From Alphaproteobacteria bacterium (GTDB lineage: Bacteria; Pseudomonadota; Alphaproteobacteria; Micropepsales; Micropepsaceae): a stretch of 64,000 nucleotides of DNA. Positions within the stretch are counted from its first letter, which is position 1. Each line of letters begins with the position of its first letter. The notes beneath the pieces were generated by a model, which worked only from the letters and a program-made list of their open reading frames with translations, had not been told where the DNA came from and did not search any database. The DNA is taken from the NCBI GenBank assembly GCA_016792565.1, contig JAEUMK010000014.1, forward strand, positions 34,968 to 98,967, given 5' to 3'. Position numbers and translations under genes: made by a program. Below are positions 45,824 to 52,197 of the stretch, piece by piece.

Positions 45824-46324
45824 TTAAGACGAGGACACCGACTTCCCGGTCACCTTCCACACTGATGCGGCCTGGAAGATCGGTTCGCCGGCTACCGTGA
45901 AATCGCCGCGCGTAAAGATCATCGAGCGCGTCGCCCGGGTGACGATGGGCGTCACCTCGAGCAGATCGCCGACCCGCGCGGCGCGCAGGAAGGTGGAGCT
46001 CTGGCTAACCGTCACGCACCACGCACCGGGCGCGCAGGCGCCCCAAGCGGCGAGTCCAAGGACCGAGTCGGCGAAGGTCATCAGCAGTCCGCCATGGACG
46101 ACGCCGAGGCCGTTATCGTGGCGCGCATCGAGAGGCAGGGCATAGCTCGTCGTGCCGTCGGCGTTCGACCGCTTGAAGCTCTGGAAGACGAAGGCCTCGA
46201 ACGGATCGACCAGCCCCGTGGCGCCGTCATAGCCGGCCGGCATCGCGACGTCCGTGACCGCCGGGCGCTGCACCCTCATCCCGTTGAACGTCTCGGGCAG
46301 TTCGTCCAGCCAGTTCCCGCTCAT
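45824..46324 (-). CDS. PaaI-family thioesterase
   Basis: HDNGLGVVHGGLLMTFAD, TRATRSMIFTRG; ATGA-coupled to the upstream paralog. Confidence 0.88.
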   Translation of the reverse strand: MSGNWLDELPETFNGMRVQRPAVTDVAMPAGYDGATGLVDPFEAFVFQSFKRSNADGTTSYALPLDARHDNGLGVVHGGLLMTFADSVLGLAAWGACAPGAWCVTVSQSSTFLRAARVGDLLEVTPIVTRATRSMIFTRGDFTVAGEPIFQAASVWKVTGKSVSSS

Positions 46325-46743
46325 GCGCCGATGATCTTCCAGATGCCGCTCGCCGTCATCAGCAGGCGTCCGCCCTGGACGAGTTCGCCCGCCACGAAGA
46401 TCAGCGACCGTGTCTTTCGCGTGACCTCGGCCGTTCCGAGCACAGGCCCATCCGCCGTCCCGCCCGCCAGGAAGTCGGTGTTCAGCGTGACGGTCGAGGC
46501 GAACCGGTCCCCGGCCGCTTCGTTCGCGGTGATGCCGAGCACATTGTCGGCCAGGGTCATCAGGAAGCCGCCATGCAGCGCGCCGCCGCCGTTGAGGTGC
46601 TGCGGGCCGGGCACGAAGGCGAAGCGCGCGGCTTCCCCCGCAGCCTTGCCGGGATGGCGCAGCATCGTGCCGACATAGGCGTTGAAGCCCGCCATGGCGG
46701 ACATCGGGGTATAGGCGGACAGATCGATCGGAGAAGATGTCAT
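46321..46743 (-). CDS. PaaI-family thioesterase
   Basis: HLNGGGALHGGFLMTLAD, RKTRSLIFVAG. Confidence 0.9.
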   Translation of the reverse strand: MTSSPIDLSAYTPMSAMAGFNAYVGTMLRHPGKAAGEAARFAFVPGPQHLNGGGALHGGFLMTLADNVLGITANEAAGDRFASTVTLNTDFLAGGTADGPVLGTAEVTRKTRSLIFVAGELVQGGRLLMTASGIWKIIGA

Positions 46744-46787
46744 GACCGCGACTGTCTAGCGAAGCCGCGGGGCTGCGCCAAGCCGCC

Positions 46788-47486
46788 TCACTCCCAGGGC
46801 AGCGGCCCGTAGCGATCGTCGACCGGATTGCGGTAGGAGCGGTCTTCATTGCGGTCGTTGTTGCCGATGGCGTCTGCATCGTCCTGCGCAGTCGGGGGCG
46901 GGTTCAGCTTGGCGATCGCCGCCAGCGTCTCGGCGTCCGGCGCCTGCAGGCTCGCCGCGACACCGGGTCCCTCGCCGCGCCTCAGCATCAGCCCGTCGCA
47001 GGCCGGTTCCAGCAGGCGCCGCTCGGGCGACAGGCGGCTACAGGTCGTCCAGGTCGACCCGGGGCCGCCGGCCGTCTCGCGCTCCGCCCGTTCGTTGCGC
47101 CGCACGAACTCCTCCAGTGCCCTGGGATCGACCGGGCCGAACCCGCCCGCCGGTGGCGCATCGGGCGAGGCGGCGATGTCGGACTCCTCGTCCAGCTTGC
47201 GCACCGGCGGGGGCAGGGCGTTACTCGGCCGGTCGGTGGCGACGTCGGCGTCCGGCCTGGGCGCGGCGGTCGGCGCATAAGGCAGCACGACGACCTGGAC
47301 CGGCGGCCGGTCGTCCTGGACCGCCCGATCCGAGAGGCTCAGCGGCTTGGGTTCGGGCGCCGCGAGAATCCAGGCGATCACGAGCCCATGGACGAGCACC
47401 GATGCCGCCGCCCATAGGGGGAAATGCGGCCGCGCATTCTCGCGCGGCTCGGCGGCGGCCCATTGCTCGTACGCGAGTGCGGTCAC
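46788..47486 (-). CDS. Hypothetical membrane-anchored Pro/Asp-rich protein with a TonB-like anchor
   Basis: AGGA RBS, GTG 47486; one TM helix containing SVLVH (SxxxH), then a Pro-rich linker and a two-Cys C-terminal region. Confidence 0.65.
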   Translation of the reverse strand: MTALAYEQWAAAEPRENARPHFPLWAAASVLVHGLVIAWILAAPEPKPLSLSDRAVQDDRPPVQVVVLPYAPTAAPRPDADVATDRPSNALPPPVRKLDEESDIAASPDAPPAGGFGPVDPRALEEFVRRNERAERETAGGPGSTWTTCSRLSPERRLLEPACDGLMLRRGEGPGVAASLQAPDAETLAAIAKLNPPPTAQDDADAIGNNDRNEDRSYRNPVDDRYGPLPWE

Positions 47487-47585
47487 GGCGTCCTGATGAT
47501 CGCGCAATATGACGGCACTAAGGCCGGTTTGCGGCCCGTCCGGTCAAGGCGGAATTGGTCGCATTACAGATTTGTGTGGATAGAC

Positions 47586-47637
47586 CGGTGCATAACCGAA
47601 TCGCACCGTTGACGCTCCGCAAATCCAGGCGCAGCCT
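47586..47637 (+). promoter_or_regulatory. Candidate sigma70 promoter with an upstream inverted repeat
   Basis: TTGACG (47609-14), 17 nt, CAGCCT (47632-37); CGGTGC-N11-GCACCG (47586-47608) abuts the -35. Confidence 0.55.
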
Positions 47638-47643
47638 TGCACT

Positions 47644-48144
47644 TGAGGTGAAACGAAACCTGCTGGCGAAAGCTGGAGATTGGCGCGGGAAGCCTTTGAG
47701 GTCCACGGGGGCGACGGCTCTCGGCGGTCATCGGCGAAAAGGGCGAAAGTCCGAACTAGGCGGTGGACGGGAAGACCTTCGGTGCGGAAGGCCGCAAGGC
47801 GGACGCATCGGTCCATGAACCCAAAACGGCGGGCCAAGGCCGTTAAGAGGGCGCGAGCGGGACCGCAAGGTCTGCGCGGCGAGACCGGAGGCGCGACGTC
47901 TGGCCCCTACGGTCGAGCTTCGGAGAGGATGGGCTGGCAACGGTTCATCGGCTCAGCTTCGGATGAAAATCCCGCAAGGGGTCAGTCCGGAGCAGTCGGG
48001 ACGGGAAGGTGGGTCCGAATAGGGTTTGCCGGAAGGTTCGGGCGGCGGAGAGCTGAATAGGGCATCGGTTGCCGGCAACGGCAGCGCGAGGCCGGAGATC
48101 AGAGGCGGATCGGCGACGGGGCCACGTCGCCGATTTTGCTTTTT
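47644..48144 (+). ncRNA. Putative large structured non-coding RNA (~500 nt), family unassigned
   Basis: At least eight GNRA-capped stems, three CUUCGG motifs, G-U pairs that work only on the + strand, long-range GUCCAC/GUGGAC pairing, flanking promoter and terminator, no credible ORF. Confidence 0.75.
48109..48144 (+). terminator. Rho-independent terminator
   Basis: ATCGGCGACG-gggcca-CGTCGCCGAT then TTTGCTTTTT. Confidence 0.85.
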
Positions 48145-48225
48145 GGGGGCCTGCTGTGCGCCCCCGCCTTCGGCCGGCAGCTGCATGCATCGTCGCCGCA
48201 TCGCTGCACTGCACACTTCGCCAAC

Positions 48226-48254
48226 TCGTAACGCAGCAGTCATGGAACTGTTGC
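48226..48254 (+). promoter_or_regulatory. Candidate PhoB (pho) box
   Basis: Three 11-bp-period units TCGTAAC-N4-CAGTCAT-N4-CTGTTGC upstream of the receptor-phytase operon. Confidence 0.5.
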
Positions 48255-48304
48255 GCGCAACCGTTAGCCGCAGACCTCGAAGCCAGTCAGGCTCGGGGGA
48301 TGCC

Positions 48305-51121
48305 ATGAAGACCATTGTGAGACGCCTGCTCAGCGCATCGGCGATTGCCGCTGTGCTGGCCGCGCCCGCCTTTGCCGCGGCCGTATCCGGCCGGGTGATC
48401 GACAGCACCGGCCAGGCGGCGCTGGAAGGTGCCGAGATCACCCTCGTCGAACTCGGCCGCTCGGCCGAATCCGGACCAGGCGGCGCCTTCCGCTTTGCCG
48501 ACGTCGCCCCCGGCAGCTACACGCTGCGCGCCGCCTATGCCGGCGCCGAAAGCGTGGACGTGGCCGTCACGGTGACCGCCGAGGGCGATGTCGTGGTCGA
48601 TGTCCGCATCGGCCCCGATGCGGGCGACTACGGCGAGAGCGTCATTGTCGTCGGCCAGCGCGCCAACCTCGCGAGCTCGATCTCGCGCCAGCGCGCCGCC
48701 GACGGCGTCGAGAGCGTCCTGACCCGCGATGCGATCGGCCAGTTTCCCGACCAGAACGTCGCCGAGGCGGTGCGCCGCGCGCCGGGCGTCAACATTCTGA
48801 ACGACCAGGGCGAGGGCCGCTTCATCGCGGTGCGCGGCCTCGATCCTGATCTGAACGCCGCCACCGTCAACGGCGCGCGCGTTCCCGCCCCGGAGTCTGA
48901 CATCCGCGCGGTCGCGCTCGACGTCATCCCGTCCGAACTCATCGAGTCGATCGAGATCAAGAAGACCCTGACGCCCGACATGGACGCCGACACGATCGGC
49001 GCCTCCATCGAGATCAACACGACCAGCGCCTTCGACCGCGAGGGCGCGTTCTACGGCGCGACGATCGAAGGCTCGTACAATGACGCGACTGAGAAGGCCT
49101 CGCCCAAGGGAGCTTTCGACTTCTCAACCGTGATCGACGGCCGGGTCGGCGTGTCGGGCGGTGTCTCGTACTACCAGCGGCGCTTCGCCACCGACAACAT
49201 CGAGGCCGAAGGCTGGGACACGACCGGTGGCATCGCCCTGTTCGAGAAGCTCGAATACCGCGACTACGATGTCGAGCGCACCCGCATCGGCCTCAGCCTC
49301 GGCCTGGACTACAAGGCGAGCGAGAACACCACGCTCTACATCCGCGGCCTGCACTCGATTTTCGAAGATCAGGAATCGCGCCGGCGCCTGACCTTCGACA
49401 TGGGCGACATCGAGCCCTTCGCCGGCGACTCGGGGTCGGCCGACTATCGCTCCGACGACGAGCGCATCCGCGTCGAGCGCGACCTGAAGGACCGCTTCGA
49501 GCGTCAGCTCATCTCGTCCGTCACGGCGGGCGGCGAAACCTTCATGGACGCATGGAAGATCGAGTATGCGGCCGCCTGGTCGAAGGCGAGCGAAAAGGAA
49601 AACGGCTCGACCGACCCCATCGAGTTCCGTCGCGACTTCGAGGATCCGGGCGAGTTCGCCGTCGGCTTCCGGGGTCTTGACGGGTTCAAGCCGACCTATG
49701 CCGTGGCGACGGGTCTTGGCGCCTTCCTCGATCCCGAGGAATACGAGTTCGAAAAGTTCGAGCGCACATCGCTCAGCTTGGCCGAGGACGAAGAGCTGTC
49801 GTTCAATTTCGATATCGCGCGCGAATTCGCACTCGAAAGCGGCTCCTTCGAGCTGCAGTTCGGCGCCAAGGCGCGCATGCGCCAGAAGACGTACGATCTT
49901 CAGCTCGACGTCTATGACGGGTTCGACGGCGACTTCACGCTGGCTGACATCCTTGGGCGCCAGGACTACGATCTGGCGCTGATCGACCCGGTTCCGGGCG
50001 TCAATCAGTCCCGCCGCTTCATCGGCGCCAATTTCGGCGACTTCGAGCTGAACGACCTCGACACGCTGTTCGAGTCGGTCGCGGCCGACTACGATGTCGA
50101 GGAAGACATCTATGCGTTCTATCTTCTCGGTCGCTACGAGACTGCGGACCTGCGGGTCATCGGCGGCGTTCGCGTCGAGCACACCCGCAACGATGTCCGC
50201 GCCAATCTCGTCGAGTTCGTCGAGGAGGGTGCGATCCGCGACGGCGAGGAACTCGACGAGGATACGATCTTCATCACGCCGACCGGCTTCGCCCGCGAGT
50301 ACACTGATTGGCTGCCCAGCCTGTCGGTCCGCTACGACGCGGCGCCGGACGTCGTGCTTCGCGCCGGCGTCTTCCGCAGCGTGGTGCGGCCGCGGCCTGG
50401 CCAGATGGCGCCGCGCTTCCTGATCGAGGAGAACGACGACAACGAGCGCGAGGGCGAATTCGGCAATCCCGATCTTGAGCCCTACAAGGCGTGGAATTTC
50501 GACGCCGCCGCCGAATGGTACTTCTCGCGCAATGCGGTCGTGTCGGCAGGCGTCTTCTACAAGTCGATCGAGAACTTCATCGTTGAAGCCAATTTCGACA
50601 ATGTCACCTTCAACGGGATCTTCGCCGACGAGGCGCTGATCCCGATCAACGGCGACGACGCGAGCGTGTTCGGCGTCGAATTCAACGTCCAGAGCGAACT
50701 GGACTTCCTGCCCGAGCCGTTCGACGGCCTGCTCGCCGGCTTCAACTACACCTACACCGACGCCACGGGCGATCTGGGCGACCGCGAGATTCCGTTGCCC
50801 GCCGCCTCGAAGCACACCTTCAATGCGATGCTGGGCTACGAGAAGGACGGCTTCAGCGCCCGGCTCGCCGCTTCCTATCGCGCGGGCTATCTTGATGAAG
50901 TCGGCGGCGGCCCGGACGAGGACCGCTACGTCAAGGACCATCTGCAGTGGGATGTGACCGTGAAGTACCGCATCACGCCGAAGGTCCAGCTGTTTGGTGA
51001 GTTCATCAATATCTCCGACGAGCCCTACATCGCCTACCAGAAGGGGCCGGACGGCGAACGGCTGCTGCAGTACGAGGAGTATTCGTGGACGGCCAAGGGC
51101 GGCGTGAGGTTGACGTTCTGA
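48305..51121 (+). CDS. TonB-dependent receptor with N-terminal carboxypeptidase-regulatory-like domain, phytase-associated
   Basis: GGGGGA RBS, signal peptide, plug FPDQNVAEAVRRAPG...VRGL, C-terminal GGVRLTF. Confidence 0.93.
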   Translation: MKTIVRRLLSASAIAAVLAAPAFAAAVSGRVIDSTGQAALEGAEITLVELGRSAESGPGGAFRFADVAPGSYTLRAAYAGAESVDVAVTVTAEGDVVVDVRIGPDAGDYGESVIVVGQRANLASSISRQRAADGVESVLTRDAIGQFPDQNVAEAVRRAPGVNILNDQGEGRFIAVRGLDPDLNAATVNGARVPAPESDIRAVALDVIPSELIESIEIKKTLTPDMDADTIGASIEINTTSAFDREGAFYGATIEGSYNDATEKASPKGAFDFSTVIDGRVGVSGGVSYYQRRFATDNIEAEGWDTTGGIALFEKLEYRDYDVERTRIGLSLGLDYKASENTTLYIRGLHSIFEDQESRRRLTFDMGDIEPFAGDSGSADYRSDDERIRVERDLKDRFERQLISSVTAGGETFMDAWKIEYAAAWSKASEKENGSTDPIEFRRDFEDPGEFAVGFRGLDGFKPTYAVATGLGAFLDPEEYEFEKFERTSLSLAEDEELSFNFDIAREFALESGSFELQFGAKARMRQKTYDLQLDVYDGFDGDFTLADILGRQDYDLALIDPVPGVNQSRRFIGANFGDFELNDLDTLFESVAADYDVEEDIYAFYLLGRYETADLRVIGGVRVEHTRNDVRANLVEFVEEGAIRDGEELDEDTIFITPTGFAREYTDWLPSLSVRYDAAPDVVLRAGVFRSVVRPRPGQMAPRFLIEENDDNEREGEFGNPDLEPYKAWNFDAAAEWYFSRNAVVSAGVFYKSIENFIVEANFDNVTFNGIFADEALIPINGDDASVFGVEFNVQSELDFLPEPFDGLLAGFNYTYTDATGDLGDREIPLPAASKHTFNAMLGYEKDGFSARLAASYRAGYLDEVGGGPDEDRYVKDHLQWDVTVKYRITPKVQLFGEFINISDEPYIAYQKGPDGERLLQYEEYSWTAKGGVRLTF

Positions 51122-52197
51122 TGGTTGGACGTGATCGCACCGGCGCGCGCGCGCTGGTCATGACGGCGGGCGCGCTCGTGCTGGCCGCCTGCGCTCCGGG
51201 CGAAACGGCGATCCCGCAAGGTTCGGCGGCGCGCGGCGATCCGGCAAAGCCGGTCGCCGCCGTTGCCGAGACGGTGGTGACGACCGATCCGGCGGTCGAT
51301 GCCGACGATCCGGTCCTGTGGGCCGACCGTGGCGATCCTTCCCGGGCCCTCTGGATCGGCACTGACAAGTCGGATGGGCTCTACGTCCATAGTCTCGACG
51401 GCACGGTGCGTCAGTTCTTCCCCGACGGACCGCTCAACAATGTCGATCTGCGCGAGGGCTTCGTCGTCGACGGCAAGCCCTACGTCCTGATCGCGGCGGC
51501 GGAACGGGCGCGCTTCGGCATCGTCACCTATCTGCTCGATCCTGCGACGATGGAGGTGAAGCCCTACGGCTTCATCCCGACCGATATGGGCGAGCCCTAC
51601 GGCTTCTGCATGGGCAGGCGTGGCGATGCGATCTACCTGATGCCGAACAACAAGGACGGCGAGGCGCGCCAGTACCGCGTCGTCGCTGGGCCGCAAGGCC
51701 CGGTCGCGACACTGGAGCGGACGCTGAAGGTCGCCAGCCAGACCGAGGGATGCGTCGTCGATGACGTGGCCCAGGTCTTCTATCTTGGCGAGGAGGATAC
51801 CGGCATCTGGCGCTTCGACTTCGACCCCGCCGCCCCCGCGACGCCCACGCGGGTCTACGCAGTCGATCGCACCGTTCTGACCGACGACGTCGAGGGCCTG
51901 ACGATCATGCGCGACGGCGGTCGCACCTATCTCATCGCCTCCAGCCAGGGCGACAGCACCTATCCGGTGTGGCAGGTTGAAGGGTCGGTCTATGTCTACA
52001 AGGGCCGCTTCGCGGTCGAGGGTGGGGCGATCGACAACGTCACCGTGACCGATGGCATCGACGCCTGGTCCGGTCCGATCGGGCCGTATCCCGAAGGCGC
52101 GATCGCCATGCACGACACCGACGACGGCGATGGCCGGCAGCAGAACTACAAGCTGGTCGACTGGCGCGACGTGAAGCGGGCGCTGGCGCTGCCCTGA
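51121..52197 (+). CDS. Beta-propeller phytase (3-phytase), predicted lipoprotein
   Basis: TGATG coupling; lipobox VLAA-C; DADDP, GTDK, NNVDLR, EPYGFC, SQTEGCVVDD, DVEGL, SSQGDS, NYKLVDW. Confidence 0.92.
   Translation: MVGRDRTGARALVMTAGALVLAACAPGETAIPQGSAARGDPAKPVAAVAETVVTTDPAVDADDPVLWADRGDPSRALWIGTDKSDGLYVHSLDGTVRQFFPDGPLNNVDLREGFVVDGKPYVLIAAAERARFGIVTYLLDPATMEVKPYGFIPTDMGEPYGFCMGRRGDAIYLMPNNKDGEARQYRVVAGPQGPVATLERTLKVASQTEGCVVDDVAQVFYLGEEDTGIWRFDFDPAAPATPTRVYAVDRTVLTDDVEGLTIMRDGGRTYLIASSQGDSTYPVWQVEGSVYVYKGRFAVEGGAIDNVTVTDGIDAWSGPIGPYPEGAIAMHDTDDGDGRQQNYKLVDWRDVKRALALP

Follow-up and report, generated by a model that had tools for sequence, protein, structure and literature searches.

The window, as we call the whole 64,000-nucleotide (nt) stretch analyzed here (Alphaproteobacteria bacterium, GenBank assembly GCA_016792565.1, contig JAEUMK010000014.1, positions 34,968 to 98,967 of the forward strand), contains an intergenic gap at window positions 47508-48304. 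The gap lies between an upstream, divergent open reading frame (ORF) of 239 amino acids (aa) on the minus strand (46788-47507) and a plus-strand gene for a TonB-dependent receptor (48305-51121), which is followed on the same strand by a phytase gene (51085-52197). Within this gap lies what is very probably a real, stand-alone gene for a structured RNA. The RNA occupies 47644-48145 of the plus strand, about 502 nt in this copy, as a block that is 74-91% identical in six other species genomes and is bounded at both ends; we infer that transcription starts near 47644. A preliminary description of this DNA, made from the sequence alone, had proposed a large independent noncoding RNA (ncRNA) of a family that it did not recognize, and covariation, the bounded block and the lack of an Rfam match all bear out that proposal.

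Homologs were identified by BLAST in 7 of the 9 species genomes of a Micropepsaceae-like genus at 74-91% identity, with matches spanning query positions 46 to ~548, corresponding to window positions ~47645 to ~48147. A BLAST comparison of the region with the window's own assembly returned a single copy. The carriers include the cultured Alphaproteobacteria bacterium SO-S41, for which a complete genome is available (PMC8297455) and in which the RNA maps to the minus strand of the chromosome at 3760664-3761168 (AP024629). Scanning GTDB genomes for an exact pattern taken from the best-conserved core segment led back to the same species, and a second exact-pattern scan returned eight metagenome contigs, giving a total of 14 distinct homologs of 506-524 nt as aligned. 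The metagenome loci were selected by the core pattern, so that their invariance within it follows from the selection itself; the seven genome copies were detected without recourse to the pattern. A 20141-nt contig, seen both in a public metagenome-assembled genome labeled 'uncultured Hyphomicrobiaceae bacterium' and as an ENA metagenome contig (loci L021 and L026), carries an RNA one base off that of the window, a U-to-C change at window position 47750 by which a G·U pair in helix 9 becomes G-C. It probably represents the same species as the window genome, and its taxonomic label is doubtful.

A covariance model (R1) was built on the core of the RNA (47813-47954) and scored 158-178 bits on the seven genus genomes. 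R1 had no match in the family's 292 other genomes or, beyond the window's own genome, in ~400 other Alphaproteobacteria; in these searches the top few candidates per genome were scored under strict filters, and weak relatives may escape. With the filters off, R1 gave only noise in the syntenic gaps of the two genus genomes that carry no RNA (G002 and G003), and BLAST with 7-nt words detected no RNA remnant in G003. A BLAST match in a genome of another genus (G012; 80% over 54 nt) was dismissed as chance, as it lies inside a glycine-codon-rich HflK-like coding sequence. The RNA appears to be confined to one genus of Alphaproteobacteria from soil and wastewater that has received little study, and its absence from two of the nine species, in which it was lost or never gained, marks it as accessory.

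The plus strand at 47640-48145 folds at -234.3 kcal/mol (z = -3.25 against dinucleotide shuffles, none of 100 being as good), and the fold of the minus strand is ordinary (z = +0.62). Comparative folding of the 14 sequences with RNAalifold produced a model of 136 pairs in 25 helices, with compensatory double changes in 38 pairs. Two of the several checks named in the preliminary description, the search for homologs and the test for covariation, are thus in favor of its proposal. When the 3' partners of the model were slid by 1-3 columns as a control, the proportion of alignment cells with canonical pairs fell from 98.1% to 33-44%, the number of pairs with both-sided changes from 38 of 136 to 6-13, and the covariation score from 0.296 to 0.036-0.063. 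G·U pairs make up 13.6% of paired cells, and only 84.6% of cells pair when the alignment is read on the minus strand; the G·U pairs thus fix the RNA strand as plus, in agreement with the earlier observation that many wobbles are valid on that strand only. A scan for additional conserved helices or pseudoknots outside the consensus, which demanded covariation and did not target the terminator arm, yielded none that was convincing, the candidates depending on one divergent sequence (L028). At the level of primary sequence, the protein encoded by the neighboring 239-aa ORF is 48-83% identical between species versus 74-91% for the RNA. The RNA is under stronger constraint than the adjacent protein gene, and the unit is under purifying selection.

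A coding function for the block was also considered. Open frames are present, as they are everywhere in DNA so G+C-rich, the candidates being a 126-aa ORF at 47680-48060 on the plus strand and a 162-aa ORF at 47953-48441 on the minus strand. Neither has a Pfam match, however, and in the 14 homologs the longest open frame and the number of stops vary, switching among the three frames, while indels of 1 nt part close relatives and shift the frame. No reading frame is conserved across the homologs, which accords with the earlier judgment that the gap holds no credible ORF, and substitutions track base pairing rather than codons. The probability that either ORF accounts for the conservation is, in our estimate, negligible.

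The block is flanked by putative transcription signals of its own, an invariant -35 box on one side and a covarying terminator on the other, with a candidate, weak -10 element ahead of the putative start site. Conservation of the block begins ~30 nt past the -35 box and ends at the T-run of the terminator; upstream of the RNA start it is limited to the -35 hexamer and a tandem repeat, and downstream of the T-run nothing aligns. The promoter proposed earlier, TTGACG-N17-CAGCCT, is present as sequence, and its -35 box (47609-47614, plus strand) is invariant in all 14 homologs, with a variable spacer, but CAGCCT is a poor -10. TTGACG is the same -35 hexamer as in the tRNA promoters of this genome, which read TTGAC[AG]-N16-17-CYTAxx. 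The putative weak -10 element, CAGCCTT (47632-47638, with CAGCCT at 47632-47637; plus strand), stands at a 17-nt spacing from the -35 box and is represented in homologs by ACGCTT, ACTCTT or ATGCTT, with GC(C)TT alone in common. Ending ~12 nt before the -35 box is an imperfect tandem direct repeat (47576-47596, plus strand), which reads GTGGATAGAC-C-GGTGCATAAC in the window and GGGGATAAC-AAC-GGGGACAAAC in most homologs. The repeat is kept in all homologs for which upstream flank is available and is absent from G003, which has no RNA. Further copies were sought in the window's own genome to define a regulon and none was found, making the site unique. We regard the repeat as a candidate activator site; centered ~45-70 nt ahead of the putative start, and combined with a consensus -35 box and a weak -10 element, it would fit an activator-dependent promoter.

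At the 3' end, the plus-strand terminator with U-tract reported in the preliminary description was the sole plus-strand terminator found by a terminator scan. This strong intrinsic terminator spans 48100-48145, with a core stem of 12 pairs (48107-48136) followed by TGCTTTTTGG; the tail reads UUUUGCUUUUU. Four pairs of its stem change on both sides among the homologs, from GGCGACG/CGUCGCC to GCCGAGG/CCUCGGC.

The position of this terminator ahead of the receptor gene had led to the alternative suggestion that the RNA is a long attenuating leader, that is, a cis-acting giant riboswitch or attenuator in which the terminator (48107-48145) gates the receptor-phytase operon. Known leaders of TonB-dependent receptor genes, such as the cobalamin riboswitch before btuB, resemble the arrangement in the window in lying upstream of such a gene and ending in an intrinsic terminator. 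The receptor-phytase pair is co-directional with the RNA 160 nt past the terminator in the window and in genomes G005 and G008, and a kinase gene is co-directional ~75 nt past the terminator in five other loci. Downstream contexts were compared across 15 oriented loci and the window (16 in total, some overlapping the same genomes). The receptor-phytase pair lies downstream in 5 of the 16 (the window, G005, G008 and metagenome loci L026 and L032), a CHASE3 hybrid histidine kinase gene also in 5, including L028 with its most divergent RNA, and a convergent TonB receptor gene in at least 4, including G001, the closest relative, whose RNA is 91% identical. With three unrelated contexts, four of the loci convergent, the downstream gene is not constant and the leader reading is not supported. 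Nor does the RNA match any riboswitch model, and its ~500 nt are separated from the receptor gene by a 160-nt unconserved spacer. On reading the alignment, with no dedicated search for such pairing, we saw no conserved alternative partner for the terminator arm of the kind that antitermination would use. The kinase gene, moreover, occurs without the RNA in G003, where it adjoins the upstream gene across a ~320-nt spacer and its proximal upstream sequence is kept.

The downstream genes also keep upstream motifs of their own, and altogether we consider a leader function very unlikely. In the window, a 20-bp palindrome, AACTGTTGCGCGCAACCGTT (48246-48265), lies 40 nt upstream of the start codon of the TonB receptor gene and is a likely operator of the receptor-phytase operon. 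The position of the palindrome is taken in G005 and G008 by another motif, ATTGTGAYGATC..TTTCA, which is TGTGA..TCACA-like and resembles a CRP/FNR-type site. Loci L020, L030 and L031 share a conserved TTGACGTTTCCGGCAGG motif ~40 nt past the RNA terminator and before the kinase gene, and a related sequence precedes the kinase gene in G003, which carries no RNA; the motif is probably the kinase gene's own promoter. The kinase gene of the other species was sought in the window and is absent, indicating a rearrangement of the locus on the downstream side of the RNA.

All parts of the module, upstream repeat and terminator included, occur together or are missing together. Its presence/absence polymorphism within the genus, with the whole module including the promoter region missing in G003, might suggest the RNA of a mobile or defense element (an omega, bridge, retron or other reverse-transcriptase-associated ncRNA) or a relic of one. 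The RNA is, however, single copy and holds the same position beside the same gene in every genome, the 239-aa gene adjoining it wherever the flank is sufficient, and no nuclease, transposase, reverse transcriptase or integrase gene adjoins it. There is no real match in IMG/VR: one contig that matched the 5'-domain pattern was rejected as chance, because the core model fails to match at the site, which falls within an ORF, leaving no link to phages. An origin of this kind is hardly credible.

The comparative model divides the RNA into a series of domains, all read on the plus strand. The 5' hairpin domain (helices 2-5, 47645-47696) has an invariant GAAA cap (47668-47671) and invariant internal loops, CGAAACC / GAGAUUGGCGCG, and its pair 26:35 is seen as CG, GC, GU and UG. 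In the second domain (47698-47779), helix 6 closes a junction with helices 7, 8 and 9. The GACG loop of helix 7 (47713-47716) is invariant, helix 9 is GNRA-capped in most homologs, and helices 8 and 9 contain three both-sided pairs each. A long-range GUCCAC/GUGGAC helix had been proposed in this region but does not hold up, as most homologs have CUCGAC for GUGGAC and no compensating change; in place of this helix, 47698-47703 pairs with 47774-47779 and 47725-47733 with 47761-47769. Helices 10/11 (47780-47810) enclose an invariant GAAG/GGA internal loop and are capped by GCAA or, in some homologs, by a loop of 6-7 nt.

The most conserved part of the RNA is the core formed by helices 12-17 (47813-47954), with a mean column identity of 92%. 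It holds an asymmetric GA/AAGA internal loop (47823-24 / 47845-48), a GCAA hairpin (47861-47872), the long helix 16 and helix 17, which is capped by GCAA or GCGA. A kink-turn was considered for the GA/AAGA loop and rejected, because the loop strand has two spare nucleotides only and a G is replaced by A in the window copy; we describe it only as a tandem-G·A-type internal loop. The apical loop of helix 16, GACGUCUG (8 nt, 47895-47902), includes the self-complementary GACGUC (47895-47900) and is invariant in the seven genomes found by BLAST, that is, independently of the search pattern. Beyond the core, helices 18/19 (47956-47993) carry an invariant GCAA cap, with three both-sided pairs in helix 19. 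There follows a clade-variable region (47994-48060), in which two clades possess different sets of hairpins ahead of a conserved GGCGRAGA-GCUGAAUAG and for which the consensus contains short helices only. The designs in this segment (alignment columns 367-417) are unrelated between the window, G001 and G006 on the one hand and the remaining homologs on the other; its flanks stay alignable, and a peripheral domain has apparently been swapped or rebuilt. Helices 22-24 (48061-48095) form a GNRA-capped, strongly covarying hairpin (48061-48093), in which both-sided changes affect all pairs of helix 24 and two of the three in helix 22. The closing helix 1 is weak, with 2 bp joining 47642-43 to 48094-95.

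All eight GNRA hairpins listed in the preliminary description occur where it had placed them (47663, 47741, 47791, 47861, 47928, 47969, 48028 and 48068), and seven coincide with helices 5, 9, 10/11, 15, 17, 19 and 24 of the comparative model, each with compensatory changes. The remaining hairpin, GCC-GGAA-GGU at 48028, falls in the clade-variable region and outside the consensus. With at least seven GNRA loops in the window copy, the term 'tetraloop-rich' was accurate. The three CUUCGG words (47777, 47918 and 47957) exist as well, but serve as strands of helices 6/10, 16/17 and 18 rather than as UUCG tetraloops, and the third reads CUUCAAGG in most homologs. The repeated words AGCUUCGGA and GAAUAGGG, which had also been pointed out, are conserved only in part.

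This architecture bears on whether the RNA could be a base-pairing or sponge regulator acting in trans, either a long Hfq-type small RNA (sRNA) or a sequestering RNA, in which conserved single-stranded segments would pair with mRNAs or titrate a regulator and structure would serve mainly for stability. A putative promoter of its own, possibly regulated, an intrinsic terminator with U-tail, as in Hfq-dependent sRNAs, and several invariant unpaired stretches would all suit such a role. Its ~500 nt, ~25 conserved helices and invariant internal loops, on the other hand, exceed what seed pairing needs, and on reading the alignment we saw no loops with recurring protein-binding motifs of GGA or CA type. 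A regulator of this type is unlikely.

Comparison of the whole window with Rfam 15, the check on novelty proposed in the preliminary description, returned no match at the gathering threshold. The database includes OLE, ROOL, GOLLD, HEARO, raiA, RNase P, transfer-messenger RNA (tmRNA), 6S, SRP, group I/II introns and riboswitches. At E<=10, matches to the region were noise, the best reaching 19.3 bits against a 45-bit cut-off and covering the terminator only, and at E<=1 four homolog loci gave nothing on the RNA. ARAGORN detected no tRNA or tmRNA gene at 46500-49000, and a literature search on the RNA, its family or 'MISL RNA' found nothing relevant. Judged by these comparisons, the RNA appears to belong to no described family and to represent a new family of large structured bacterial ncRNAs.

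To our knowledge, bacterial RNAs longer than ~400 nt with an elaborate conserved structure are few, comprising rRNAs, RNase P, tmRNA, group I/II introns, OLE, GOLLD, ROOL and a handful more, and each of them has turned out to be a ribozyme, the core of a ribonucleoprotein or, recently, a self-assembling nanostructure. We are aware of no such orphan large RNA from Alphaproteobacteria. A ribozyme with its active site in the invariant core (47813-47954) would be in keeping with the size of the RNA, its many GNRA caps and the nucleotides that never vary at the core's junctions and internal loops. There is no similarity to any Rfam ribozyme family, however, nor are flanking exons, a processing site or a substrate evident, and the RNA is narrowly distributed and dispensable. 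We therefore rate catalysis as quite improbable.

The closest parallels are OLE, ROOL and GOLLD, which share with the RNA a stand-alone nature, a length of several hundred nucleotides, many conserved helices and conserved loop and internal-loop sequences. Abundant GNRA caps, suited to A-minor or tetraloop-receptor docking, are a further likeness. Self-interacting palindromic kissing loops have been seen by cryo-electron microscopy in all three, namely, L9.3 of OLE, L21a/b of GOLLD and L18 of ROOL (PMC12286853). The RNA described here has one palindromic loop, recognized from its sequence. It differs from these families in having no sequence or structure match to their Rfam models, in its host, a Gram-negative alphaproteobacterial genus unlike the lineages in those families' names, and in a far narrower distribution over seven species genomes, with no linkage to phages or plasmids. 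The raiA motif and other orphan intergenic ncRNAs (e.g., PMC11109978, PMC10861870) are likewise long, G+C-rich, ORF-free regions with covarying structure and a terminator of their own; in contrast to them, the present RNA is not in Rfam 15, the sole comparison made, and is found in one genus only.

Taking these data together, the best explanation is a stand-alone structured ncRNA of ~505 nt that acts in trans as a compact fold, a reading that we consider probable as a whole. Its size, GNRA-rich architecture and invariant loops and internal loops point to a compact, trans-acting tertiary fold. Transcription would proceed, perhaps aided by a factor bound at the tandem repeat (47576-47596), from a promoter whose -35 matches the consensus and whose -10 is weak. 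The RNA would resemble the large ornate bacterial RNAs in acting in trans as a compact tertiary fold, either through self-association or as a scaffold for a protein partner; this more specific mechanism is a tentative proposal, and somewhat doubtful. There are two candidate contacts. The invariant palindromic GACGUC loop (47895-47900) may form a symmetric kissing dimer, or the CGUC of this loop may pair intramolecularly with the invariant GACG loop of helix 7 (47713-47716). The boldest version, rather unlikely as we see it, would make the RNA the first large 'ornate' class of Alphaproteobacteria, a compact particle with GACGUC-mediated self-assembly or catalysis and a dedicated activator bound to the repeat.

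Several points weigh against the stand-alone, trans-acting RNA. All homologs come from one narrow clade, with about three or four sub-groups. None of 500 column shuffles reached the proposed structure on any of the three measures given above, but because the homologs form one clade, few independent events underlie the covariation and the shuffle statistics overstate its significance; the slid-partner control preserves this relatedness, and its outcome is equally clear. The long-range closure differs between models built on 7 and on 14 sequences and is uncertain, whereas the local helices are robust. With respect to transcription, the -10 element has no TA of the kind seen in the tRNA -10 boxes, and a sigma-70 promoter scan with E. 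coli-type criteria reported no promoter. The kissing contact is beyond the reach of covariation, since the GACGUC and GACG loops never vary, and among ~12 loops, one with a 6-nt palindrome would not be very surprising. Lastly, the adjoining 239-aa gene is also present in both species that have no RNA.

A class without an Rfam relative would add a new fold to the short list of large bacterial RNAs, and the cultured, fully sequenced carrier SO-S41 makes the RNA directly accessible to experiment. Its narrow and patchy distribution limits its general importance and at the same time lets gain and loss of a complex RNA be traced within one genus.

The gene upstream of the RNA is itself specific to the genus, being present in all nine genomes of the genus and in none of 32 genomes beyond it. 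Its 239-aa product has no Pfam or NCBIfam match; it has one predicted membrane span, a proline-rich segment and a C-terminal region with two cysteines. Other genes in the neighborhood encode hotdog thioesterases, an aldo-keto reductase and a short-chain dehydrogenase. A 351-aa minus-strand ORF at 45824-46879 is probably an artifact of the ORF list, as the interval seemingly contains two genes for hotdog-fold (PaaI-like) thioesterases in different frames, at 46321-46743 and ~45824-46300.

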